Under the pieces are notes generated by a model that worked only from the letters and a program-made list of their open reading frames with translations, was not told the DNA's origin and ran no database searches. From the NCBI RefSeq assembly GCF_016026235.1, contig NZ_CP065613.1: a DNA stretch of 64,000 nt. One strand, written 5' to 3'. This DNA comes from Escherichia coli. GTDB taxonomy: Bacteria > Pseudomonadota > Gammaproteobacteria > Enterobacterales > Enterobacteriaceae. Positions 11,028-62,510 of the stretch are shown one piece after another. Made by a program: the position numbers and the translations under genes. How positions within the stretch are numbered: position 1 is the first letter of the stretch; the number at the start of each line of letters is the position of its first letter.

Positions 11028-11549
11028 CAGGAGATGCTCCTGCATGGCTTTCAGATATGCATTTTCTGCGCGAAGATAACGCAGCTCATTCTTCATCTCT
11101 TCCGGCGTCATGTTTCCCTCGTTTTCATGGGTATCATCAGAACGGGTCATGCTTTTCTCCTTCCTGCGCCTGATAAAGGCCTCATTACCAGATTTGCGGT
11201 AGCCTTTTATCCAGTTTTTAACCATGTTGTGGCTGGGAATGTTAAACCGGGCAGCTACCCGGGGTAGAGACTCAGAATGCCCGAGAGCATAAAGAACCAC
11301 GCAAAGTTTATCTTCAGGAGAATAGCTACGCTTGTGTCTGCAATCCAGTGCCTGAGGACCGTGAAGAAGAAAAAGATTAATCCAGTGTGAGAGGCTGGTG
11401 TGAGAAAGTTGAAAGAGTTTTGCCGTAGAAATGATGCCTGCATGACCGGCCAGGTAATGATTTACAGCGGCAAGTTTTACTTCAAATGAATGTTTCATAA
11501 ACTGCACCTTCAGATGTCAGATTATGTCCAACATTTGGGGTGCAGTTCA

Positions 11550-11645
11550 GAACGCCTTATCCGGCCTACAAAGTCGTATAAATTCAATCTATTGCAGTTT
11601 ATTGGTAGGCCTGATAAGCGCAGCGCATCAGGCAATCTTACGCTT
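11550..11645. repeat. REP/BIME elements (right half of interrupted REP plus a second REP)
   Basis: gaacgccttatccggcctac ... taggcctgataagcgcagcgcatcaggc. Confidence 0.7.
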
Positions 11646-11797
11646 GTCATCAGTCTCATGCCCATAACCTTATTGATGTGGTGGTGGGTAAATTGGCGGC
11701 ATAGCTTGAGGTGGTAACGCGGAATACGAGAGATGGTGTCGTCACACCCTATGAGCTGTAATCCGGGCGACCAGCGCCACCCGGAAAACGTCAGAGA

Positions 11798-12727
11798 TTA
11801 CTCCCCTTCACCCGGAAACAGGAACGGGTTAATGGAACTGCGGGCATAGCCTTCTTGCTCCATTCGCGCGTCCAGTACCAGAGAAGCGAGGTCATCTGCC
11901 ACGGCTTCAACTTTCGGTTCTTTTTCCTGATAAAGAATCTTCAGGTAAGTGCCGCAGTCATCGCAGCTTTCGGCTTTAATCGCGGCCTGTTCGTCATCCA
12001 GCGACCAGTAATGCAGTTTGCCGCTCTGCTCGCAGTTGCTGCATTTTACGCGCACTACGTGCCATTCGGTTTCACACAGGTTGCAGTGCAGGTAACGCAG
12101 ACCCTGAGTGGTGCCAATTTGCACCATGCTGGACACCGGCATAGAACCACAAACCGGGCAATATTGACGTTGCTCGCCGTATTCAGCGCGGGCTTTGCCG
12201 GGGATCAGATTGGCCATCTGCGCCCAGTAGAGCGACAGTGCAGCCCAGATAAACGGCGCTTTATCGCTGCTGACGGATGAGAAATCAGAGGCAAACAGTG
12301 CGCTGGCCATATCTTCCAGCTCCTGAGTCGATGCCTTCTCCAGATTCTCAATCACTGCCAGCGCCGGGCCGCTCATTTCAGGTTTCAGCTCAGCAATCAG
12401 CGCCATCAGCAGCTTTTGCCAGTGCTTATCACGCGGCAGAACGTGAATATCCAGCGGGGGCTTGCCCTGTGCGCTGGCTTCTTTAATGCGCGCGGTCAGA
12501 TCCATCTCCAGCGGATGGTCGTACAGCACCACTTCCTGGGCGTGGGCGATAAGCGCAGCAAAGCGCAGGTAATCACCCAGCGGATTATTTTCTGCCAGCT
12601 CGCGCAGACGCTCGGCGCGGCGGTTGTATAAATTCTTGAGCCGAGGGAACAATAACGGCGGAATCATATCCGCCGTACGTTTCTCGCTCGAACCCAGCTC
12701 ATCTTGCGGGATTATGCGAATACTCAT
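11798..12727 (-). CDS. fdhE: formate dehydrogenase formation protein
   Basis: 309-aa ORF with CxxC pairs (CPVCG, CNLCE, CSNCE, CDDCG); next to fdoI. Confidence 0.9.
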
Positions 12728-13359
12728 TCAGCTTTCTTTTCCGTTGTCTTGCGGACCTCACGGTACCAGCGCGGGTGATGTTTCTTCGCCCAGGCGCTGG
12801 TAACCCATCCTTCCACCATGGCGGTAATCGTGCCTTTCACCCAAAGGGCGGCGTAGATATGCACCATGATAACCACAATTAACGCCACTGCGGCAAATGA
12901 ATGCAGCATTAACGCGAATCGGATCACCGGGATTGAGAAAGCAGGCGCAAAATAAGGACGCCAGATAATCACGCCGCTCACCAGCAGCAGAACCAGGAAA
13001 ATAATCGCCGCCCAGAAAACGCATTTCTGACCGAAGTTATAACGCCCGGTGTCACCTACTTCCTCGTTGACGACGATCTTACGAATATTCTTCGCCCAAA
13101 AGATATCATCCCGATTGATTAGGTTGTGATGCCAGTAACGGAAAAACATGATGATGAACGAGGCAAACATAACCACGCCGACAAACGGGTGCAGAATTCG
13201 CGCCAGCTGCGGTGTGCCCATGATTTGCATCAACCAGTTGAAGGACGGGAACAAAAAGCCCAGCCCGCTCACCGCCGCCAGGATGAAGCAGAAGGCGGTG
13301 ATCCAGTGGTTGATACGTTCCGGCGCGGTGTAGCGCACGATGGTGTCACGTCGTTTCAT
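12724..13359 (-). CDS. fdoI: formate dehydrogenase-O cytochrome b556 subunit
   Basis: 211-aa multi-TM ORF; 4-nt overlap with fdhE and fdoH. Confidence 0.9.
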
Positions 13360-14258
13360 TTGCGCTCCTCGTCTTTCTCTTCGTGCAGATTATTCTCTTC
13401 CTCATCCGCACGGTTCGGACCGACACCCACGTAGTGGAAGATACTGGCTGCGAAGGTAGCCGCAAAGCCAACAGCTGCGAGCGGTTTCCAGATGCCTTTC
13501 CAGAATTTCACGGTTTCGCTGATTTCCGGGTTCTCCGGCAAGCCATGATACAGATTTGGCTTGTCAGCATGGTGCAGCACGTACATAACGTGTGTACCAC
13601 CGACGCCTGCCGGATCGTACAGGCCCGCATTGTCGTAACCGCGGGTTTTCAGCTCCGCCACGCGCTCGCTCGCCAGCGTTTTCATCGACTCTTTCGTACC
13701 GAAGTGAATCGCGCCCGTTGGGCAGGTCTTCACGCAGGCTGGTTCTTGCCCAACCACCACGCGGTCAACGCACAGCGTACATTTGTAGACGCGGTTGTCT
13801 TCCGGGTTGAGGCGCGGAATGTCGAACGGACAGCCCGCAATGCAGTAACCGCAGCCAATGCACTGCTCGGACTGGAAGTCGACGATACCGTTGGCATACT
13901 GAATAATTGCCCCTTCCGCCGGGCACGCTTTCAGGCAGCCTGGATCGGAACAGTGCATACAGCCGTCTTTGCGGATCAGCCATTCCAGTTTGTCGTTCTG
14001 CTCCACTTCCGAGAAGCGCATCACCGTCCACGATTTGGCGCTTAAATCATTGGGGTTGTCGTACACCCCAATGTTATTGCCGACGGTATCGCGAATGTCG
14101 TTCCACTCTGAACACGCCACCTGACAGGCTTTACAGCCGATACAGGTGGTGACGTCGATGAGTTTCGCCACTTCTTCCTGGAAGTCCCGCGCCTGAGGCG
14201 CGGGGGTCAGACCGTTAGTCGCGGAACGACGAATGATATCTTGCGATTGATAAGCCAT
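13356..14258 (-). CDS. fdoH: formate dehydrogenase-O iron-sulfur subunit
   Basis: 300-aa ORF with several CxxCxxCxxxCP ferredoxin motifs and C-terminal TM anchor. Confidence 0.9.
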
Positions 14259-14270
14259 ATGTCGTCTCCG

Positions 14271-17200
14271 TTACACCTTTTCCACATTCACAAGGAAGGA
14301 CTTAAACTCCGGCGTCTGCGTGTTCGCATCACCAACGAATGGCGTTAACGTATTGGCAATAAAGCCTTTTTTAGCTACGCCTTCATAACCCCAGTGAATC
14401 GGAATACCGATGGTATCGATATCTTTGCCGTTCGCTTTCAGCGTGCGAATACGTTTGGTCACCACCGCTTTGGCCTTGATATAGCCACGGTTGGAGGAGA
14501 CTTTCACGGTATCGCCCTGGGCAATGCCAAGTTTATTCGCCAGCGACTCCCCGATTTCCACAAACTGCTCTGGCTGCAAAATCGCGTTCAACAGCGCGTG
14601 TTTGGTCCAGTAGTGGAAGTGCTCGGTCAGACGATAGGTGGTTCCGACATACGGGAACTTATCGGCTTTACCCAATGCTTCGGCGTCGTCTTTAAAGATA
14701 CGTGCAGCCGGGTTCGAGATAACGTTTGGATGCAGCGGGTTAGTTCCCAGCGGCGTTTCAAACGGCTCGTAGTGTTCCGGGAACGGACCTTCCGCCATCT
14801 TATCGAGGGCAAACAGACGCCCCATGCCTTCCTGCTGCATGATAAACGGCCCGACGCCGCTGCCCGGAGGCGCTGCGCTGTAGTCCGGAATATCCCAGCC
14901 GGTCCACTTAGTGCCGTCCCATTTCAGCAACTGACGCTTCGGATCCCACGGGTTACCCTGCGGATCTGCGGAGGCGCGGTTATACAGAATGCGGCGGTTA
15001 AGCGGCCATGCCCATGCCCAGCCCAGCGTGTTACCGAGGCCAGACGGATCGGCGTTATCACGACGCGCCATCTGGTTGCCTTCCGGCGTCCAGCTACCGG
15101 CGAAAATCCAGCAACCACAGGAAGTTGTACCGTCATCGCGCAGTTGGGCGAACGAGCTAAGTTGTTGGCCTTTCTTGACGATAACCGCACCGGTTGCCGG
15201 ATCGGTAATATCGGCCAGCGCCTTACCGTTACTCTCCATCGCCACTTCTTCTGAAGATGGCTCATGCGGAATGGCGTAGTTCCAGGTCATGTTCAGCACC
15301 TGGTCCGGGTTCGCGCCACCCTGTTCGGCATACATCTTGCGCAAGCGCAGGAAGATACCGGAGAGGATCTCGCCGTCAGTCAGCGCAATCCCCGGGGCGT
15401 CCGCACCTTTCCAGTGCCACTGTAACCAGCGACCTGAGTTAACGATAGAACCGTTCTCTTCCGCGAAGCAGGTCGATGGCAGACGGAACACTTCGGTCTG
15501 GATCTTCGACGAGTCAACTTCGTTCAGCTCACCGTGGTTCTGCCAGAAGTTAGAGGTTTCAGTGTTCAGCGGGTCGATGGTGACGAGGAACTTCAGTTTC
15601 GACAGACAACCGATCACTTTGTTTTTGTTCGGGAATGAGGCAACAGGGTTAAAGCCCTGGCAGATATAGCCATTGACCTTGCCCTCTTTCATCATCTCGA
15701 AGTATTGCAGGACGTCGTAGCCTTTATCCCACTTCGGCAACCAGTCAAAGCCCCAGCTATTTTCCGCCGTCGCTTTATCACCAAAGAAGGCCTTCATCAT
15801 AGAGACGAAGAATTTCGGGTAGTTGCCCCAGTAGTTTACCTGGCCTTCCAGCAGCGGTTTTGGCGTGTTGGCGGTAAGGTAGGTTTGCAGATCGGTCTGC
15901 TTCTCGCTTGGCAGCGTCATGTAACCTGGCAGGCTCTGCGACAGCAGCCCCAGGTCCGTCAGCCCCTGAATATTGGAGTGACCGCGCAGGGCGTTAACGC
16001 CGCCGCCAGCCATCCCCATGTTACCGAGCAGCAGCTGGATCATCGCCATCGTACGAATGTTTTGCGCACCAACGGAGTGTTGCGTCCAGCCGAGGGCATA
16101 CAGGAACGAGGCAGTTTTATCGTGAGCACTGGTTTCTGCGATGTATTCGCAGACTTTCAGGAACGCGTCTTTTGGCGTACCACAGATGTTTTCAACCACA
16201 TCTGGCGTGTAGCGGGAAACGTGCTGTTTCAGCAAGTTCCACACGCAGCGCGGATGTTGCAGCGTGGTATCGCGTTTGGCGAAGCCGTTTTCGTCCAGTT
16301 CATAAGTCCAGGAGGATTTATCGTACTTGCGTTTTTCCGCGTCGTAGCCGGTGAACAGGCCATCTTCAAAGCCGTAATCCTCACGCACGATCAGGCTGGC
16401 GTTGGTATAGGCTTCGGTGTATTCGCGGTTGAATTTTTCATTGTTCAGCAGGTACAGCAATACGCCTGACAGGAAAGCAATGTCAGTACCGGAACGAATA
16501 GGGGCATAGTAGTCAGCCACCGCCGCCGTACGCGTAAAGCGAGGATCGATCACAATCAGCTTCGCGCCATTGTGAATTTTGGCTTCCATCGCCCAGCGGA
16601 ACCCGACCGGGTGAGCTTCAGCGGCGTTACCGCCCATCACCACGACGAGGTTGGCGTTCTTGATGTCGACCCAGTGGTTGGTCATCGCACCGCGACCAAA
16701 TGTTGGAGCAAGACTTGCTACCGTTGGTCCGTGTCAGACACGCGCCTGGTTGTCGACCGCGAGCATACCCAGCGCGCGGGAGAATTTTTGCGTTAAATAG
16801 CCGGTTTCGTTACTCGACGCGGAAGCACACAGCATCCCGGTGGAGAGCCAGCGGTTAACAGTCACGCCTTCGGCGTTTTGCGCAATGTAGTTAGCATCGC
16901 GGTCTTCTTTCATCAGTTTGGCGATGCGATCAAACGCCTCTTCCCAACTGATTTGCTGCCATTTATCAGAACCTGGCGCACGGTATTCCGGAAACTTCAG
17001 ACGGCTTTCGGAGTGGATGAAATCCACCAGGCCAGCGCCTTTCGGACAAAGTGCACCGCGGTTGACCGGGTGATCCGGATCGCCTTCGATATGGAAGATA
17101 GATGCTTTGGCGTTTTTTGCTCCGTCACCGAGGCTGTACATCAACAGCCCACAGCCTACGGAACAATAGGTGCAGGTATTACGGGTTTCGCGGGTGCGCA

Positions 17201-17321
17201 GCAGTTTATACTGCCGGGTTTCCGCGAGTGCTACGCTGGGTGCAAAACCCAGTGCCGCTGCCGTGGTGCCTGCCATACCGCCAGCGCAGATCTTAAAGAA
17301 CTGCCTTCTGCTGACCTGCAT
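14271..17321 (-). CDS. fdoG: formate dehydrogenase-O major subunit (selenocysteine-containing molybdoenzyme, Tat signal)
   Basis: ORFs 16734..17321 and 14271..16685 are in the same frame, separated only by an in-frame TGA at 16734-16736 (reverse strand); N-terminal twin-arginine motif (SRRQFFK); combined length 1016 codons. Confidence 0.9.
16688..16733 (-). other. SECIS-like stem-loop directing selenocysteine insertion at the fdoG UGA
   Basis: mRNA just 3' of the UGA reads CAC GGA CCA ACG GUA GCA AGU CUU GCU CC..., a hairpin resembling the fdhF SECIS (recalled). Confidence 0.6.
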
Positions 17322-17514
17322 GGATTGCTCCTTGTTTCGACATTGTCACGTCCCATTTACATTCGCTTGCTGCGTGTGCAGGGAGTGGGAGTTATTTTTC
17401 TTTGCGGAAGGGGCCGCAAAGGTCCAGAATTGGCTCAATTTCCCTCCATCCAGGAAGGGTTTGTAACAGAATACCATAATGTTGGTGTGTGTGTTCTTAT
17501 CTGGTTAAGAGAAA

Positions 17515-18348
17515 GTGAAAAAAACACAGCAAAAAGAAATCGAAAATGTGACAAATATCACAGGTGTTCGTCAAATTGAGTTATGGCGGCGTGATGATTT
17601 ACAACACCCACGGTTAGATGAGGTCGCGGAAGAAGTTCCCGTTGCGCTGGTCTACAACGGCATTTCGCATGTGGTGATGATGGCGTCGCCCAAAGACCTT
17701 GAGTACTTTGCGCTCGGTTTTTCGCTTTCCGAGGGGATAATAGAAAGTCCGCGCGATATCTTCGGCATGGATGTCGTTCCTTCCTGTAATGGTCTTGAAG
17801 TACAAATTGAGCTTTCCAGCCGCCGCTTTATGGGGTTGAAGGAGCGCCGCCGGGCGCTGGCGGGACGTACGGGCTGTGGCGTATGCGGCGTGGAGCAACT
17901 TAATGACATCGGAAAACCGGTGCAGCCGCTACCGTTCACCCAGACGTTTGATCTCAACAAACTGGATGATGCATTACGTCATCTCAACGATTTTCAGCCA
18001 GTGGGGCAACTGACTGGTTGTACTCACGCCGCTGCCTGGATGTTGCCATCTGGCGAACTGGTCGGCGGGCATGAAGACGTGGGTCGCCATGTGGCGCTGG
18101 ACAAACTGTTAGGCCGCCGGTCACAAGAAGGGGAAAGCTGGCAGCAAGGTGCGGTACTGGTTTCCAGTCGTGCCAGTTATGAAATGGTGCAAAAGTCGGC
18201 GATGTGCGGCGTAGAGATTTTGTTTGCGGTGTCTGCCGCGACCACGCTTGCTGTAGAAGTGGCTGAGCGCTGTAATTTGACACTGGTAGGTTTTTGTAAA
18301 CCGGGTCGGGCAACGGTTTATACCCATCCGCAGCGTTTGAGCAATTAA
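17515..18348 (+). CDS. fdhD: sulfurtransferase FdhD (formate dehydrogenase maturation)
   Basis: 277-aa ORF; divergent from fdoG. Confidence 0.9.
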
Positions 18349-18500: not shown

Positions 18501-19556
18501 ATGAAAAGGAATTTATTATCTTCCGCTATTATAGTCGCCATCATGGCCCTCGGTCTGACGGGTTGTGATGATAAAAAAGCCGAAACAGAAACGCTCCCGC
18601 CTGCCAATAGTCAACCTGCCGCACCAGCTCCTGAAGCGAAACCTACTGAAGCTCCCGTTGCAAAAGCAGAAGCTAAACCTGAAACACCTGCGCAACCGGT
18701 GGTCGATGAACAAGCGGTTTTCGACGAAAAAATGGATGTCTATATCAAGTGCTACAACAAGTTACAGATCCCGGTACAGAGCAGTCTGGCGCGTTATGCT
18801 GACTGGCTGAAAGATTTTAAACAGGGGCCTACCGGTGAAGAGCGTACTGTTTATGGCATCTACGGCATTAGTGAATCCAGCCTCGCTGAGTGTGAAAAAG
18901 GCGTAAAAAGTGCTGTGGCGTTAACGCCTGCGCTGCAACCAATTGATGGCGTGGCGGTGAGTTATATCGATGCTGCCGTGGCGTTGGGTAATACCATTAA
19001 CGAAATGGATAAATATTACACCCAGGAAAATTATAAAGACGATGCGTTTGCGAAAGGGAAAACGCTGCACCAGACATTCTTAAAAAATCTGGAAGCCTTT
19101 GAACCTGTAGCAGAATCTTATCATGCGGCGATTCAGGAAATTAACGATAAGCGCCAGCTTGCGGAACTGAAAAATATTGAAGAAAGAGAAGGGAAAACAT
19201 TCCACTACTACTCTCTGGCAGTCATGATTTCAGCGAAACAAATTAATAACCTGATTTCGCAAGAGAAGTTTGATGTTGATGCGGCAATGAAGAAAGTCTC
19301 TGAACTGGAAACGCTGGTGGCGCAGGCCAAAGAAGCGGATAAAGGCGGTATGAATTTCTCGTTCATTAATTCGGCAGACCAGTATCAACTCGAGACTAAA
19401 AAATATGTTCGCCGCGTCAGAGATACAGTCCCGTACTCTGACTGGGATAAAGAGCATCTTCAGGATGCAAACACAAGCTGGATGGTCGAAGACTCATTTC
19501 CACGAGCGTTACGCGAGTACAACGAAATGGTTGATGACTATAATAGCCTGCGTTAA
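18501..19556 (+). CDS. yiiG: lipoprotein of unknown function
   Basis: 351-aa ORF; signal peptide with lipobox LTGC; Pro/Ala-rich linker. Confidence 0.85.
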   Translation: MKRNLLSSAIIVAIMALGLTGCDDKKAETETLPPANSQPAAPAPEAKPTEAPVAKAEAKPETPAQPVVDEQAVFDEKMDVYIKCYNKLQIPVQSSLARYADWLKDFKQGPTGEERTVYGIYGISESSLAECEKGVKSAVALTPALQPIDGVAVSYIDAAVALGNTINEMDKYYTQENYKDDAFAKGKTLHQTFLKNLEAFEPVAESYHAAIQEINDKRQLAELKNIEEREGKTFHYYSLAVMISAKQINNLISQEKFDVDAAMKKVSELETLVAQAKEADKGGMNFSFINSADQYQLETKKYVRRVRDTVPYSDWDKEHLQDANTSWMVEDSFPRALREYNEMVDDYNSLR

Positions 19557-24322: not shown

Positions 24323-24798
24323 TATTGGACTCCATGAAAAAATATTATTGTTAATTGTAACGGCGGGGCGGTTTTGTGATGAGCGCGGATATGTCGTGAA
24401 GTCGTGACAATATAAGGCAGAGTGAAGGATAAATTTTGCGGTGTAAGGCACATATTGATGGGTTAAATAAATGTTGTGAATAAAAAATCATTATTTAATG
24501 ATTTTGTGAATGTTTAACTGTTGCGGATATTTTTCTGCCACGTTATTTATATTTGTGGCTTATGAGTCAGTTTGAATCATATCTAATATTTTTTACGATA
24601 TTTAGTTAAAAACGGCACTATTGTTATATTCCTCACGTTCCAGGAAATCAGCGGATTTACTCATATTATACGGCGGGATACTATCCATCGGCCTGCTGAA
24701 GTTGGATTAAAAATTCGAAAGTGCACACTTTATATTTCTCTATATACGTATTCCTTTTGGAAAGCGTAGGGCCTCCTTTATTTCAGGGAACGTAAATA

Positions 24799-26193
24799 AT
24801 GAAAAAATCGACATTATCTTTAGCCATCGGTTTATTATTGGCATGTAGTACCGGTATGGCAAAAACACAGCATTTAACGCTGGAACAACGCATGGCATTG
24901 CTGGAAGAACGCCTGGAAGCGGCAGAAATGCGGGCGGCAAAAGCAGAGAGCCAGGTTAAACAGCTGCAGACACAACAAGCCGCTGAGATCCGCGAAATTA
25001 AGGCCGCTCAGGGCAATACGCCGGTAAATGGACAGGCAACGGCGGAATCTGCAAAGAAAAATGCCACCTCACCTAATCTTTTGCTTTCAGGTTATGGCGA
25101 TTTAAAAATCTACGGCGACGTAGAATTTAATATGGATGCGGAAAGTAATCATGGCCTGCTGGCAATGACCAACGCTGATGTGAATAGTGATCCCACTAAT
25201 GAACAGTGGAATCTCAATGGTCGTATTCTGTTAGGTTTTGACGGTATGCGAAAGATGGACAACGGTTATTTCGCCGGGTTCTCCGCACAACCGCTGGGTG
25301 ATATGCACGGTTCAGTAAATATCGATGATGCGGTATTCTTCTTTGGCAAAGAAAACGACTGGAAGGTCAAAGTAGGCCGTTTTGAAGCCTACGATATGTT
25401 CCCGCTGAATCAGGATACCTTTGTTGAACATTCCGGTAATACTGCGAACGATCTTTATGACGATGGCAGCGGTTATATCTATATGATGAAAGAGGGCCGC
25501 GGGCGCTCTAACGCTGGCGGTAATTTCCTCGTCAGCAAACAACTTGATAACTGGTATTTTGAATTAAACACGTTACTTGAAGACGGAACATCTTTATATA
25601 ATGACGGTAATTATCATGGACGCGATATGGAGCAGCAGAAAAATGTTGCTTATCTGCGTCCGGTAATTGCCTGGTCGCCGACGGAAGAATTCACCGTTTC
25701 CGCAGCGATGGAAGCGAACGTGGTAAATAATGCTTATGGTTATACCGATAGCAAGGGTAATTTTGTCGATCAGTCCGATCGTACCGGCTATGGTATGAGC
25801 ATGACCTGGAACGGCCTGAAAACGGATCCGGACAATGGCATTGTGGTTAATCTTAATACCGCCTATTTAGATGCTAATAATGAGAAAGATTTCACTGCCG
25901 GGATTAACGCGCTGTGGAAACGTTTCGAGCTCGGTTATATCTACGCGCACAATAAGATTGATGAATTCAGCGGTGTAGTTTGTGATAACGACTGCTGGAT
26001 TGATGATGAAGGGACGTACACCATTCACACCATTCATGCGTCTTATCAGTTCGCTAATGTGATGGATATGGAGAACTTTAATATTTACCTCGGGACGTAT
26101 TACTCCATTCTGGATAGCGACGGTGATAAAAAACACGGTGATGATACTGATGACCGTTACGGCGCACGCGTTCGCTTTAAATACTTCTTCTGA
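24799..26193 (+). CDS. putative outer-membrane glycoporin (signal peptide, N-terminal coiled coil, beta-barrel ending in Phe)
   Basis: 464-aa ORF; signal MKKSTLSLAIGLLLACSTGMA; heptad-like LEQRMALLEERLEAAEMRAAKAESQVKQLQ; alternating amphipathic strands; C-terminal RFKYFF; no K-12 gene recalled between frvA and rhaM. Confidence 0.6.
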   Translation: MKKSTLSLAIGLLLACSTGMAKTQHLTLEQRMALLEERLEAAEMRAAKAESQVKQLQTQQAAEIREIKAAQGNTPVNGQATAESAKKNATSPNLLLSGYGDLKIYGDVEFNMDAESNHGLLAMTNADVNSDPTNEQWNLNGRILLGFDGMRKMDNGYFAGFSAQPLGDMHGSVNIDDAVFFFGKENDWKVKVGRFEAYDMFPLNQDTFVEHSGNTANDLYDDGSGYIYMMKEGRGRSNAGGNFLVSKQLDNWYFELNTLLEDGTSLYNDGNYHGRDMEQQKNVAYLRPVIAWSPTEEFTVSAAMEANVVNNAYGYTDSKGNFVDQSDRTGYGMSMTWNGLKTDPDNGIVVNLNTAYLDANNEKDFTAGINALWKRFELGYIYAHNKIDEFSGVVCDNDCWIDDEGTYTIHTIHASYQFANVMDMENFNIYLGTYYSILDSDGDKKHGDDTDDRYGARVRFKYFF

Positions 26194-26233
26194 TGAAGGC
26201 GCGGTGCTGGATATTTTCCGGCACCGCAACTCA

Positions 26234-27423: not shown

Positions 27424-27644
27424 CCGTAGGCCGGATAAGGCGCTCGCGCCGCATCCGGCAATCAATGCCTGATGCGACGCTGTCGCGTCTTATCAGGCCT
27501 ACAACTATTGCCGACCTGTAGGCCGGATAAGGCACTTGTGCCGCATCCGGCAATCAATGCCTGATGCGACGCTGTCGCGTCTTATCAGGCCTACAACTGT
27601 TGCCGACCTGTAGGCCGGATAAGGCGCTCGCGCCGCATCCGGCA
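27424..27644. repeat. BIME cluster (tandem REP pairs) between rhaD and rhaA
   Basis: About 100-bp unit (gtaggccggataaggcgctcgcgccgcatccggca atcaatgcctgatgcgacgctgtcgcgtcttatcaggcctac) repeated twice plus a partial third copy. Confidence 0.85.
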
Positions 27645-36424: not shown

Positions 36425-36525
36425 CCTCGGAGTGTAGGCCTGATAAGACGCTATCAGCGTCGCATCAGGCATCCTGCTCAAATGCCGGATGCGGCGTAAA
36501 CGCCTTATCCTGCCTACAAATGCGG
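36425..36525. repeat. REP/BIME elements
   Basis: taggcctgataagacgctatcagcgtcgcatcaggc ... gccggatgcggcgtaaacgccttatcctgcctac. Confidence 0.8.
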
Positions 36526-41493: not shown

Positions 41494-41600
41494 AAATGCC
41501 TGATGCGCTTCGCTTATCAGGCCTACGTGAATTCTGCAATTTATTGAATTTACAAACTTTTGTAGGCCGGATAAGGCGTTCGCGCCTCATCCGGCATCGA
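41494..41600. repeat. REP/BIME elements
   Basis: gcctgatgcgcttcgcttatcaggcctac ... taggccggataaggcgttcgcgcctcatccggc. Confidence 0.8.
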
Positions 41601-51474: not shown

Positions 51475-51783
<309 letters not shown>

Positions 51784-51797
51784 TCTCTTCCATGCAG

Positions 51798-51823
51798 AGG
51801 CGCCGCAAGGCGCCTTATTTTTT
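51798..51823 (+). terminator. rho-independent terminator of zapB
   Basis: Hairpin aggcgccgcaaggcgcct followed by a T-run. Confidence 0.8.
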
Positions 51824-52538
51824 ACTTCACTGTATTTTTAGCAGACAACATAATCTCCATCGCCTGTTGGCGATATTTATCTGCCGTATCTGGCTCCATT
51901 AATGCAATGATCCCCACAGCCCTGGGGGTGTCTTCAAGATAAACACTGATGGTTCTTTTCTGCTGACCATCAAAATTTATCAACACATCCTGATACTTAC
52001 AGGTGAAATGTTTGGCATTACAATCATGAAACTGGAAGGTTTCTTCATTGTATTGATCCTTGAGATTGTCTCGCTGCATCTTCTTTAACTCTTCCAGCGA
52101 GTCATCGGCGCTACGTCCTGCGGGCAGGCGGAAAGCAGAAATAAAGACGCTATTATCTTCACTTCTTATATCAATGGTTTTATCAGTACTAATAGAAACC
52201 GTATTCCAGTGTCGGTTTGGGACAGTCACGGAAATAGCTGCCTTCTCAAACGTATAGTGCCACGGGGTGAACAGACGAAACGTATTGCCGACGTTGGATA
52301 AAAGCAGGACTCCCAATACCCAACAGCACCCGCGAGTAAAACTGGCGAAGTTACGCGTTTTTTTAGTGAATGTGCACAGAATACCTGACACAAGCACGGG
52401 AAGTAATAACGGCCCAAGAAGTACTGAACCGATATACTCGCCAACCATCCCAGGATCTCCAGTAAGCAAGTTACTGTGCTGAAGATGACTAAGAAAAATG
52501 GTTATTATCCATAGTATTAATAAGATAACGTATCTCAT
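51822..52538 (-). CDS. hypothetical membrane-anchored protein (paralog 1 of tandem pair)
   Basis: 238-aa ORF starting ATG; N-terminal hydrophobic helices then soluble domain; paralogous to 52571..53257; lower GC than flanks; no K-12 gene recalled here. Confidence 0.65.
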   Translation of the reverse strand: MRYVILLILWIITIFLSHLQHSNLLTGDPGMVGEYIGSVLLGPLLLPVLVSGILCTFTKKTRNFASFTRGCCWVLGVLLLSNVGNTFRLFTPWHYTFEKAAISVTVPNRHWNTVSISTDKTIDIRSEDNSVFISAFRLPAGRSADDSLEELKKMQRDNLKDQYNEETFQFHDCNAKHFTCKYQDVLINFDGQQKRTISVYLEDTPRAVGIIALMEPDTADKYRQQAMEIMLSAKNTVK

Positions 52539-52570
52539 ATCAATCCATTATTATTAACATGCACATCAGA

Positions 52571-53257
52571 TCATTGACGAGCAGAAAGCATCATTTTCAT
52601 TACTTCTTCTTGATATTCGTCCAAATAATCTGGGTCGATAGCTGCGACCAGTTGTATCAAATTAGTGTTATCCAGTAGAGTCATGAAAATAGCATGTCTT
52701 ACTTTGCCATCACTCATTGTTTGCACTCCTTCCTGATAAGCGCAGGCAAATCCCTGAACATCACAAACATGCATTTCTGCAGTTCCGTTTTGAGTCGCGG
52801 TAAGTTCCTCGATTGAATGCACACCGAGTTCATTTTGTGAGAAGGCAACAATAGCTAAAATAGCATGGGCATCCCGGGTCACCAGGGTTGGTCCTTGTTT
52901 TACTATATTGGCAACCCACTGTTTGCTCGGAACCGTGACGGTGATACCTGGCTCCGGGAAAGTATAATCCCATATGCTGTGTCGTTCCCACACCGTATAG
53001 CTGCTATAGATAAGAAATAATCCCATTAACCAACAAGTGCCGCGAATAAAGCTGCGGCTGCTTCTTTTTTTTATCGTTATACAGATTATTGTGGCGATAA
53101 TAAATGATAAGGCAAGTGGGTTAAAAAATACGTTAGCAAAATATAAAATCATTTCACCCGCGTTGCCAGATAAAAGAAATTTGTAGCGGAAATGGTTAAC
53201 GGCTATAAGTAATAAATATATAAATAAAAGAATAATATTCTGCATGAATACGTCCAT
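52571..53257 (-). CDS. hypothetical membrane-anchored protein (paralog 2 of tandem pair)
   Basis: 228-aa ORF; shared motifs with paralog 1 (TVTVP, (R/K)xW, C-terminal (M/I)MLSA). Confidence 0.65.
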   Translation of the reverse strand: MDVFMQNIILLFIYLLLIAVNHFRYKFLLSGNAGEMILYFANVFFNPLALSFIIATIICITIKKRSSRSFIRGTCWLMGLFLIYSSYTVWERHSIWDYTFPEPGITVTVPSKQWVANIVKQGPTLVTRDAHAILAIVAFSQNELGVHSIEELTATQNGTAEMHVCDVQGFACAYQEGVQTMSDGKVRHAIFMTLLDNTNLIQLVAAIDPDYLDEYQEEVMKMMLSARQ

Positions 53258-53258
53258 G

Positions 53259-53292
53259 TATAAAAAAGGGGAATTTAATTCCCCTTTTAACG
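53259..53292 (-). terminator. rho-independent terminator of rraA
   Basis: Palindrome aaaaggggaatt/aattcccctttt followed on the reverse strand by a T-run; abuts the start codon of the inserted paralog. Confidence 0.7.
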
Positions 53293-53304
53293 CATGGCAG
53301 ATAC

Positions 53305-53790
53305 TTATTCAATATCCAGCGGATCTTCTGAAAGAATAATCCCGGTATTGTCGGCATAAAGATGGTCGCCGGAGAAGAAGGTAACACCGCCAAAATTGAC
53401 GCGGACATCGCTTTCGCCAATGCCTTCGCCAGCGGCACCAACCGGAATTGCCGCCATCGCCTGGATGCCGATATCCAACTCTTCCAGGTCATCTACCTGA
53501 CGCACCGCGCCGTAAATGACCAGACCTTCCCATTCATTTTGTACTGCCAGACGCGCCAGTTCAGCATCGACCAGTGCGCGACGAACAGAACCACCGCCAT
53601 CGACGACAAGAACACGACCACGGCCATTCTGTTCGAGCAGATCGTACAGCAACCCGTTGTCCTCGAAACATTTTACCGTGATTATTTGTCCGCCAAACGA
53701 CGCCCGTCCGCCAAAGTTGGAGAACAGCGGTTCCACGACGTTAACATCTTCTTGATAGATGTCACAAAGCTCGGAAGTATCGTATTTCAT
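53305..53790 (-). CDS. rraA: regulator of RNase E activity A
   Basis: 161-aa [16 protein letters not shown]... Confidence 0.95.
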
Positions 53791-56216: not shown

Positions 56217-56747
56217 TTACGCTTTGTAGCTTAATTCTTCGATGGTGTGGAAATGGTTGGTATAGATGCAAATGTCGCCTGCAATATCCAACGCCTTTTC
56301 AGCAATTTCACGGGCGCTAAGTTCAGTGTTTTCTAACAGCGCGCGCGCCGCAGCCTGGGCGTAAGGGCCGCCGGAGCCGATAGCAATAAGATCGTTTTCT
56401 GGCTGCACCACGTCACCGTTACCGGTGATGATAAGCGATGCAGTTTCATCCGCGACTGCCAGCAGTGCTTCAAGTTTGCGCAGCATGCGATCGGTACGCC
56501 AGTCTTTTGCCAGCTCAACGGCGGCTTTAACCAGATGGCCCTGATGCATTTCCAGTTTACGTTCAAACAGTTCGAACAGCGTAAAAGCATCCGCAGTACC
56601 GCCCGCAAAGCCCGCGATGACTTTGTCGTTGTACAGACGGCGGACCTTTTTCACGTTGCCTTTCATTACGGTATTGCCCAACGTGGCCTGACCATCACCA
56701 GCGATGACCACATGGCCGTTACGGCGTACGCTTACTATAGTTGTCAC
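56217..56747 (-). CDS. hslV: ATP-dependent protease subunit HslV
   Basis: 176-aa [14 protein letters not shown]; Thr at position 2. Confidence 0.95.
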
Positions 56748-56814
56748 GAGCTGACCCCTTGGTTACGAATACAGAGTACAAACCCCGTACAAAAGTACGG
56801 GGCATAATGCAATT

Positions 56815-59071: not shown

Positions 59072-61429
<2,358 letters not shown>

Positions 61430-61433
61430 TTAG

Positions 61434-61685
<252 letters not shown>

Positions 61686-62409: not shown

Positions 62410-62510
62410 ATGCCGGATGCGGCGTGAACGCCTTATCCGGCCTACAAGTTCGTGCAAATTCAATAAATTGCAATATGACGTAGGCCTGATAAGCGTAGCG
62501 CATCAGGCGA
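62410..62510. repeat. REP/BIME elements
   Basis: gccggatgcggcgtgaacgccttatccggcctac ... taggcctgataagcgtagcgcatcaggc. Confidence 0.8.

Follow-up and report, generated by a model that had tools for sequence, protein, structure and literature searches.

Selenocysteine codon 196 and the SECIS element of fdoG in an Escherichia coli genome

Does the TGA that splits a large reverse-strand reading frame in this 64-kb stretch of Escherichia coli DNA (hereafter the window) mark a broken gene, or does it encode selenocysteine (Sec)? A mechanical ORF list cuts the region into 16734..17321 (-), of 195 aa, and 14271..16685 (-), of 804 aa. The second of these begins at ATG 16685, the first ATG after the TGA, which lies 16 sense codons downstream. 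A preliminary description, made from the sequence without database searches, had taken both ORFs as a single frame for the catalytic subunit of formate dehydrogenase-O (FDH-O), parted only by the TGA at 16734..16736, and had proposed that this codon is read as selenocysteine rather than being a pseudogene break.

A single frame for FdoG and its setting

Translation bears out the continuous frame. The 1017 codons of 14271..17321 (-) hold two stops, namely the TGA at codon 196 (16734..16736) and the terminal TAA, and the 820 codons past the TGA are free of any further internal stop. Over this stretch the two other frames of the same strand contain 41 and 59 stops and those of the opposite strand from 7 to 37, so chance does not explain the open frame. 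Its length is 195 + 1 (Sec) + 820 = 1016 aa. The total of 1016 given in the preliminary description was therefore correct, although the listed ORFs from which it was said to be summed add up to 999 (195 + 804).

The gene is almost certainly E. coli fdoG, encoding one 1016-aa selenoprotein with Sec at position 196. The protein is 100% identical in amino acid sequence to b3894 of E. coli K-12 MG1655 and 77% identical to FdnG. The NCBIfam profile TIGR01553, for the formate dehydrogenase-N/O alpha subunit, matches it over the full length at 1574.6 bits (cut-off 814.2), and the protein contains the Pfam domains Molybdop_Fe4S4, Molybdopterin and Molydop_binding. In a search of the Protein Data Bank (PDB), for which Cys served as a placeholder at position 196, FdoG matched chain A of 1KQF over its full length (1902 bits; 1015 aligned residues in one chain). 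Relative to MG1655 we found 18 nucleotide differences in 3051 nt, all synonymous and all downstream of the TGA. If the part beyond the TGA were unconstrained, 18 synonymous and 0 non-synonymous changes would have a probability of approximately 3e-12 to 7e-11; purifying selection thus acts on fdoG downstream of the UGA.

The gene lies in the K-12 arrangement, with divergent fdhD followed by fdoG-fdoH-fdoI-fdhE (bit scores are given versus the cut-off of each profile):

14271..17321, reverse strand: fdoG, catalytic (alpha) subunit of formate dehydrogenase-O, 1016 aa including Sec196, plus TAA stop
13356..14258, reverse strand: fdoH, iron-sulfur (beta) subunit, 300 aa (TIGR01582, 478.7 bits versus 334.7; fdoH in RefSeq)
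12724..13359, reverse strand: fdoI, cytochrome b556 (gamma) subunit, 211 aa (NF007924, 453.3 bits versus 341)
11798..12727, reverse strand: fdhE, formate dehydrogenase accessory protein, 309 aa (NF002925, 604.1 bits versus 426)
17515..18348, forward strand: fdhD, divergent sulfurtransferase, 277 aa (TIGR00129, 340 bits versus 140.9; annotated fdhD)
17328..17333, reverse strand: Shine-Dalgarno sequence AAGGAG, read directly, 6 nt ahead of the ATG start codon (17319..17321)
17223..17321, reverse strand: N-terminal signal region of FdoG, approximately residues 1-33, ending ...VALA before ETR at a predicted cleavage site

This synteny of fdhD with fdoGHI-fdhE, together with the identity to b3894, confirms the assignment to FDH-O. 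The region aligns collinearly with 4.07-4.13 Mb of MG1655, and K-12 fdoG has the same protein, UGA codon, SECIS sequence and flanking genes, leaving the feature without any difference between the two strains. The fdhD product is needed for formate dehydrogenase maturation (PMC6239281). The RefSeq pipeline labels the catalytic gene of this locus 'fdnG', because a single NCBIfam model (TIGR01553) names both proteins. That the locus is fdo and not fdn follows from the gamma subunit, which passes NF007924 and fails the FdnI-specific NF007558 (243.6, below the cut-off of 339). The paralogue fdnG, which encodes 1015 aa, lies elsewhere, in fdnGHI adjoining yddG/yddM, and is nitrate-induced (PMC6239281). 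A consensus scan of 11500..17700 for promoters and terminators returned one promoter-like match (4.6 expected) and five terminator-like matches (6.2 expected). Three accessory ORFs had no match in PADLOC, Pfam or NCBIfam scans. An IS3-family element is located approximately 250 bp downstream of fdhE in this strain and is absent from K-12.

The twin-arginine motif SRRQFFK noted earlier is read directly at FdoG residues 4-10 (17292..17312, -) and is followed by ICAGGMAGTTAAALGFAPSVALA. Tat-signal profiles, run on whole FdoG and on its first 45 residues, scored below their cut-offs, at 8.2 bits versus 22.7 (Pfam TAT_signal) and 10.6 versus 16.7 (TIGR01409). FdnG shares the motif, and the N-termini of the two proteins are nearly identical. 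FdoG is a periplasmic protein (PMC3160892; PMC6239281).

Codon 196 and the hairpin that follows it

The features around the internal stop are as follows:

16734..16736, reverse strand: UGA codon 196, decoded as selenocysteine; the sole internal stop, aligned with X196 (Sec) of FdnG in 1KQF
16681..16739, reverse strand: SECIS element of the Rfam SECIS_3 type, 59 nt, overlapping codons 195-214
16705..16722, reverse strand: upper stem-loop GGUAGCAAGUCUUGCUCC, the probable SelB-binding part; minimum-energy fold, coordinates checked

Alignment to FdnG, a check that the preliminary description had proposed, places the fdoG TGA exactly at the selenocysteine X196 of the solved structure (1KQF). In E. 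coli fdnG (b1474; PDB 1KQF/1KQG) Sec is likewise residue 196, and K-12 fdoG and fdnG both have TGA at the same codon. TGA also occupies the equivalent codon in 118 homologous loci of other species, which were retrieved with a search pattern that itself contained TGA. According to published work, each of the three formate dehydrogenases of E. coli is a selenoprotein, Fdh-O among them (PMC3160892; PMC6239281), and mutation of selC abolishes the Fdh-N/O activity (PMC3160892). Of 5426 complete E. coli genomes, 5424 carry the tRNA-Sec gene selC, from which we infer that this strain has it as well; no sel genes or tRNAs were detected within the 64-kb window. Sec196 is, we assume, the molybdenum ligand at the FdoG active site, coordinated with the bis-MGD cofactor. 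In that role it would make the active form of this respiratory formate dehydrogenase dependent, in this strain, on selenium and the sel genes.

The RNA quoted in the preliminary description (CACGGACCAACGGUAGCAAGUCUUGCUCC...) exactly matches the sequence 3' of the UGA. The 59-nt element is a member of Rfam SECIS_3 (RF01989), a curated family of bacterial SECIS elements, whose model it matches over all 59 positions at 84.3 bits (gathering threshold 63, E = 8e-20). This match and the alignment with Sec196 of 1KQF together uphold the reading of the UGA as a selenocysteine codon. Comparison with fdnG was equally clear, as all 59 nt are identical in K-12 fdnG. The two genes have 74.9% nucleotide identity; the longest stretch without a mismatch spans 71 nt, begins at codon 195 and takes in the whole SECIS, and the next longest is 36 nt.

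The hairpin had been likened to the fdhF SECIS, a resemblance that holds for its architecture and not for its sequence family. With SECIS_2 (RF01988), the model of the experimentally dissected fdhF prototype, the fdoG element stays at 28.1 bits, below the threshold of 70, and falls outside the family. Both elements have UGA followed by CACGG and an 11-nt spacing, with G15 and G16, a bulged U17 and apical-loop G23 and U24 at equal distances from the UGA. In contrast, the upper stem of fdoG has one pair more, giving an 18-nt rather than a 17-nt stem-loop, its loop is GUC closed by A-U where fdhF has GGUC, and the stem sequences, the lower stem and the 3' side differ. The upper stem-loop of fdoG, GGUAGCAAGUCUUGCUCC, begins after the UGA plus 11 nt (CACGGACCAAC), with the bulged U17 at 16720 and loop G23 and U24 at 16714 and 16713. 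Published work lists this spacing of 11 nt, a bulged U17 and G23 U24 in the loop as the defining features of SelB binding (PMC8659212). The fdoG hairpin is of the fdnG/fdoG SECIS type and, by analogy, probably works like the fdhF element. Its binding by SelB is likewise expected from established knowledge of such hairpins. In 1996 Huttenhofer et al. reportedly carried out SelB footprinting on the fdnG hairpin, which is identical in sequence to that of fdoG.

RNA folding, the other check proposed, gave a mixed answer. A hairpin does form (-13.8 kcal/mol), but its energy is indecisive by itself, with z = -1.4 relative to shuffled sequences, 21 of 200 of which fold as well. The z score varied with the length folded (-1.4 for 48 nt, -0.2 for 61 nt, -1.9 for 40 nt). 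Folding energy alone is not beyond chance; the covariance-model match and the cross-species pairing described below are.

Conservation of the element and other readings of the stop

Homologous loci were retrieved solely by a pattern of the codons V-U-H-G-P-T-V-A. The pattern gave 120 matches. One, in Streptomyces, lay outside every FDH frame and was excluded as fortuitous; the 118 loci used contain 66 distinct 59-mers. Across these 66 sequences the upper helix is 99.4% paired. Two of its pairs fall at third-codon positions and vary without ever being unpaired: pair 21-33 is GC in 52 sequences, AU in 8 and GU in 6, and pair 24-30 is AU in 46, CG in 18 and GC in 2. Together they account for 28 cells with changes on both sides. 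None of 500 shuffles matched the observed covariation, and in a control with slid partners pairing fell from 92% to 26-58%. Pairing in the fdoG SECIS is thus kept through compensatory changes. Model positions U20, G26 and U27, which correspond to U17, G23 and U24 counted from the UGA, are invariant, and U27 stands third in a Ser/Gly codon. The lower helix is less regular, with 86% of cells paired, and in E. coli it pairs one position out of register with the Rfam consensus. This register is ambiguous, because the consensus and the E. coli minimum-energy fold are each 86% paired.

Among 5426 complete E. coli genomes, 5425 contain the 59-mer, with 10,830 copies in total. It is also 100% identical in 25 loci of other Enterobacterales (including Enterobacter, Citrobacter, Providencia, Photorhabdus, Yersinia and Klebsiella), in whose flanks codon identity at conserved residues averages 0.57. 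Flanking synonymous sites are approximately 43% diverged, as opposed to the frozen 59 nt, in at least six named genera besides Escherichia. An apical stem-loop of 17-18 nt suffices for SelB binding, and the stretch frozen in Enterobacterales exceeds this apical part.

These data bear on three other readings of the stop. Were the TGA a nonsense mutation, fdoG would be a pseudogene in 195-aa and 804-aa remnants, much as a mechanical ORF call presents it. We regard this as highly improbable, given that the TGA and its surrounding 59 nt are present in nearly every complete E. coli genome (5425 of 5426) and again in fdnG. TGA also stands at this position in the 118 loci of other species, though there the pattern required it, the 820 codons beyond it are stop-free with only synonymous differences from K-12 (18 against 0), and the equivalent residue of the solved FdnG structure is selenocysteine. 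The pseudogene reading was rejected as already refuted by conservation; neither relaxed constraint nor an unconserved stop was found. Splitting of the frame into two ORFs, or its flagging as a pseudogene, is what gene callers unaware of Sec produce, and it matters for annotation only. It is just as improbable that the two ORFs are two proteins, with termination at the UGA and re-initiation at ATG 16685 yielding a split catalytic subunit. An in-frame ATG does lie 16 codons past the TGA, but it encodes the conserved internal Met213, and the 16 intervening codons (HGPTVASLAPTFGRGA) specify a peptide that is identical in FdnG, nearly invariant in the 118 loci and, in 1KQF, part of a single chain.

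The remaining reading accepts one polypeptide and dispenses with SelB: the UGA would be read through by near-cognate insertion of Trp or Cys or by a suppressor tRNA, and conservation downstream would reflect protein constraint only. The unremarkable folding energy would fit such a view, as would the high conservation of the peptide that the SECIS region itself encodes. Protein constraint alone does not account for constrained synonymous third-codon positions, for pairs 21-33 and 24-30 maintained by changes on both sides, or for a U27 that is invariant in all 66 sequences as the last base of a Ser/Gly codon. Within the element, synonymous codon identity reaches 100%, versus approximately 57% outside it, and Fdh-N/O activity is absent from a selC mutant (PMC3160892). 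We accordingly give this possibility almost no weight and retain the reading of UGA 196 as a selenocysteine codon, which nothing of substance contradicts. The residue, the gene and the hairpin family are already known from RefSeq, the PDB (via the paralogue), Rfam and the literature, and nothing in them is new.

A model for recoding, and a possible further role

In the model we favor, UGA 196 of the fdoG mRNA is recoded to selenocysteine since the 40-46 nt directly downstream form a SECIS hairpin. By the established bacterial mechanism, the C-terminal domain of SelB would bind the apical stem-loop through the bulged U17 and loop G23/U24. This would tether SelB-GTP-Sec-tRNA(Sec), whose tRNA is the selC product with anticodon UCA, at the A site as the UGA arrives, where the complex would presumably outcompete release factor 2 (RF2). 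The ribosome would then melt the hairpin and read it as codons 197-212. Translation would yield a chain of 1016 aa whose Sec196 is predicted to coordinate molybdenum in the bis-MGD cofactor. Through its twin-arginine signal peptide, FdoG would probably be exported along with FdoH to the periplasmic side of the membrane, and formate oxidation by FdoGHI is expected to take place there.

The freezing of the whole stretch of approximately 59 nt at synonymous sites might mean that the lower stem and internal loop have a further function tied to their sequence, beyond the 'minimal SECIS' model, and translation of E. coli fdoG may respond to temperature; we consider this combined proposal speculative and rather unlikely. 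If true, the extra role of the SECIS could be ribosome pacing, RF2 exclusion or SelB titration. Recurrent gene conversion between fdoG and fdnG is an alternative explanation for the frozen 59 nt. The match of the fdoG 5' UTR to the FdoG-1 RNA thermometer family is below threshold.

The in-frame UGA of fdoG

The features on which this analysis centers are:
14271..17321 (-), fdoG, encoding the catalytic subunit of formate dehydrogenase-O
16734..16736 (-), in-frame TGA, codon 196 of fdoG
16681..16739 (-), SECIS hairpin 3' of the UGA, as matched by Rfam model SECIS_3

Translation of 14271..17321 on the minus strand yields a single frame of 1017 codons, interrupted only by the TGA at codon 196 and closed by a TAA. 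The other two frames of this strand contain 41 and 59 stops and those of the opposite strand 7 to 37, indicating that the open frame is real. In a mechanical ORF list the gene appears as two pieces, 16734..17321 (195 aa) and 14271..16685 (804 aa), the second starting at the first ATG, 16 sense codons past the TGA. The preliminary description rightly placed both in one frame split by the TGA alone; the sum it gave, 1016, is that of the whole frame (195 + Sec + 820) and not of 195 and 804, since the latter is counted from the ATG.

A Protein Data Bank (PDB) search, run with Cys as a placeholder at codon 196, returned the formate dehydrogenase-N paralogue FdnG (1KQF) as the top match (1902 bits, residues 1-1015). 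The selenocysteine of 1KQF, entered as X, stands exactly opposite codon 196 (NQARV-U-HGPTVASLAPTFGRGAMTNHW), and the next-best matches are Desulfovibrio enzymes that their depositors call "selenocysteine-containing". A TGA occupies codon 196 in both K-12 fdoG and K-12 fdnG, and codon 140 in fdhF.

All but one of 5426 complete E. coli genomes contain the 3051-nt fdoG. It differs from its MG1655 orthologue (b3894) at 18 nucleotides and no amino acids, and all 18 differences fall 3' of the TGA, where about 23-27% of possible substitutions are synonymous. Without protein-level selection, 18 synonymous changes out of 18 would arise with P of about 3e-12 to 7e-11, so the segment past the TGA is translated and evolves under purifying selection.

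Sawers et al. reportedly labelled the third isoenzyme with 75Se in 1991. The sequence and expression of fdoGHI are reported to have been described by Plunkett et al. (1993) and by Abaibou et al. (1995). SelB reportedly leaves footprints on the hairpins of both fdhF and fdnG (Huttenhofer et al., 1996), and the FdnGHI structure is attributed to Jormakka et al. (2002). Selenocysteine is a constituent of each of the three E. coli formate dehydrogenases; FdoG, FdoH and FdoI have been identified by mass spectrometry, and the Fdh-N/O activity band is lost in a selC mutant (PMC3160892). In FdhF, FdnGHI and FdoGHI, bis-MGD is coordinated in the catalytic subunit by a selenocysteine ligand, and the last two enzymes are oriented toward the periplasm (PMC6239281).

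Three other explanations can be envisaged for an internal TGA: a pseudogene broken at this codon, a split gene with re-initiation at Met213, or read-through of the UGA independent of SelB. Each is contradicted by conservation of the TGA, the 18:0 ratio of synonymous to non-synonymous differences, the occurrence of the protein as one chain in 1KQF, the constrained synonymous sites and dependence on selC. The Sec alignment, the SECIS_3 match, the 18:0 pattern and the conserved TGA instead identify the UGA as a selenocysteine codon and not a pseudogene break. The preliminary observation and its interpretation are thus both correct, and the fdoG Sec codon and SECIS are already known in every respect.

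Type and conservation of the SECIS

The RNA quoted earlier as lying downstream of the UGA matches the window exactly. The 48 nt that begin with the UGA form a hairpin of -13.8 kcal/mol with the apical part GG-U-AGCAA-GUC-UUGCU-CC. The folding test that had been proposed is not decisive alone, because this energy is unremarkable against shuffles (z = -1.4 for 48 nt, -1.9 for a 40-nt version). Decisive was a covariance-model search, in which SECIS_3 (RF01989; gathering score 63) aligned to 16681..16739 (-) over all 59 model positions with 84.3 bits (E = 8e-20), the best-scoring hit across the whole 64-kb window. The fdhF-type model SECIS_2 (RF01988) remained below threshold (28.1 bits vs 70), so the element belongs to the fdnG/fdoG type. 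The reported resemblance to the fdhF SECIS therefore fails at the level of the model but holds for local features: in both genes the upper stem-loop begins 11 nt past the UGA, and G15 G16 U17 and G23 U24 occupy identical positions, counted from the U of UGA. By these features a review (PMC8659212) defines the E. coli SECIS and its contacts with SelB.

Conservation was assessed by scanning one genome per species with a pattern that fixed only the codons V-U-H-G-P-T-V-A, third positions free, which kept the 3' half of the apical part, like the lower stem, clear of preselection. The scan yielded at least 120 stretches, from which one chance match was removed; at least 118 are in-frame FdnG-type loci, with 66 distinct 59-mers among the matches listed (ungapped alignment). 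Among these 66, pairing in the upper helix reaches 99.4%. Pair 21-33 (GC 52, AU 8, GU 6) and pair 24-30 (AU 46, CG 18, GC 2) are never unpaired, and both link third-codon positions (Val201-Ala205 and Ala202-Leu204, respectively). None of 500 shuffles reached the observed covariation or pairing, and with the partners slid by 1-3 columns pairing falls to 26-58%, against 92% in register. No variation occurs at the bulged U or at the G and U of the loop, the latter U being the third base of a codon for Ser or Gly. Pairing is less regular in the lower helix (86%), where the E. coli register lies one position off the Rfam consensus.

In E. coli, fdoG agrees with fdnG at 74.9% of nucleotides and, where the residue is conserved, at 58% of codons. 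The longest stretch without a difference covers 71 nt from codon 195 on, and the next longest 36. In 25 loci of other Enterobacterales, picked for an identical 59-mer and hence 100% identical there, the 180-nt flanks have a mean codon identity of 0.57 where residues are conserved. The 59-mer occurs 10,830 times in 5425 E. coli genomes. Judged from these comparisons, synonymous sites are frozen over the whole 59-nt element, beyond the minimal SelB-binding stem-loop, both among Enterobacterales and from one paralogue to the other.

Decoding machinery and gene identity

The present analysis shows that the frame is continuous, that the gene is orthologous to b3894, that the UGA aligns with Sec, that the hairpin belongs to a SECIS family with conserved pairing, and that selection acts past the UGA. 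According to established knowledge, SelB-GTP-Sec-tRNA(Sec) would bind the apical stem-loop via U17 and G23/U24 and, with the UGA in the A site, the tethered complex would outcompete RF2; the hairpin would then be unwound and translated as codons 197-212. Sec196 would ligate Mo, and folded FdoG would be exported with FdoH by the Tat pathway. This last step rests on the literature because Tat-signal profile models scored below threshold on FdoG; the twin-arginine motif noted at its N terminus (SRRQFFK) was read directly at residues 4-10. The window contains neither tRNA nor sel genes; in K-12 the sel genes are located at other chromosomal positions. As all but two of 5426 complete E. coli genomes (5424) carry selC, the tRNA-Sec gene, we infer its presence in this strain.

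Downstream of fdoG lie fdoH, fdoI and fdhE, with fdhD divergent upstream, each above its NCBIfam cut-off; for the gamma subunit, the FdoI model passed and the FdnI model failed. The window is collinear with MG1655 4,071,967-4,129,540. The name fdoG used in the preliminary description is the right one for this locus. In most E. coli genomes, thousands in all, the RefSeq pipeline calls the fdo-locus gene 'fdnG: formate dehydrogenase-N subunit alpha' (6001..9051 in L001, the fdo-locus stretch of strain FDAARGOS_943), beside genes named fdoH and fdoI. This label is a naming artefact, as one model, TIGR01553, names both paralogues. The E. coli genome search also revealed seven plasmid-borne fdoG/fdnG-like genes with a SECIS and a few genomes with three copies; such a gene is absent altogether from one of 5426 complete genomes.

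The fdoG 5' UTR and first codons (17292..17490, -) gave a sub-threshold match to RF02778, 'FdoG-1 5' UTR thermometer' (E = 2e-5; 32 bits, with the gathering score at 50), good in the 3' half (Shine-Dalgarno, AUG, first 10 codons) and poor in the 5' half. When 17285..17375 is folded at minimum energy, some of the Shine-Dalgarno is base-paired (GGA...UCC), with z only -1.3. No paper centered on a thermometer of E. coli fdoG turned up in a literature search.

Other features of the window

Relative to MG1655, the window carries four additional segments:
6948..8993, 2-kb insertion between fabY and yiiE
6853..8697 (+), 614-aa ORF carried by this insertion
10118..11549, IS3-family insertion sequence between yiiF and fdhE
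10977..11507 (-), orfA of its split transposase
10150..10872 (-), orfB of the same transposase
24472..26232, 1.8-kb insertion between frvA and rhaM
24799..26193 (+), ORF for a 464-aa RafY-like glycoporin (Pfam Porin_8, 511 bits)
51780..53306, 1.5-kb islet between zapB and rraA
51822..52538 and 52571..53257 (both -), adjacent islet ORFs of 238 and 228 aa

The 614-, 238- and 228-aa ORFs had no match in Pfam, NCBIfam or PADLOC. The 6948..8993 segment is full-length in 1061 of 5426 E. coli genomes, annotated 'transposase / hypothetical protein', and the islet in 657 of 5426, both ORFs being annotated as hypothetical proteins. The IS3-family element, which lies downstream of fdhE at ~250 bp from its stop and thus just beyond the 3' end of the fdo operon, is also annotated in FDAARGOS_943, which alone has an fdoG 100% identical to this one. 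That strain has an IS1A between yiiG and fdhD (L001 4134..4831), whereas in the window yiiG (18501..19556) comes immediately after fdhD (17515..18348), so the window does not represent exactly that state of the assembly. Ordinary Rfam matches above threshold lie at 27429..27591, 36437..36514, 41519..41560, 56745..56802, 61414..61466 and 62446..62487; these comprise three REP-derived naRNA4, two ES036, a ClpQY (hslVU) promoter element and an L31 (rpmE) ribosomal-protein leader.
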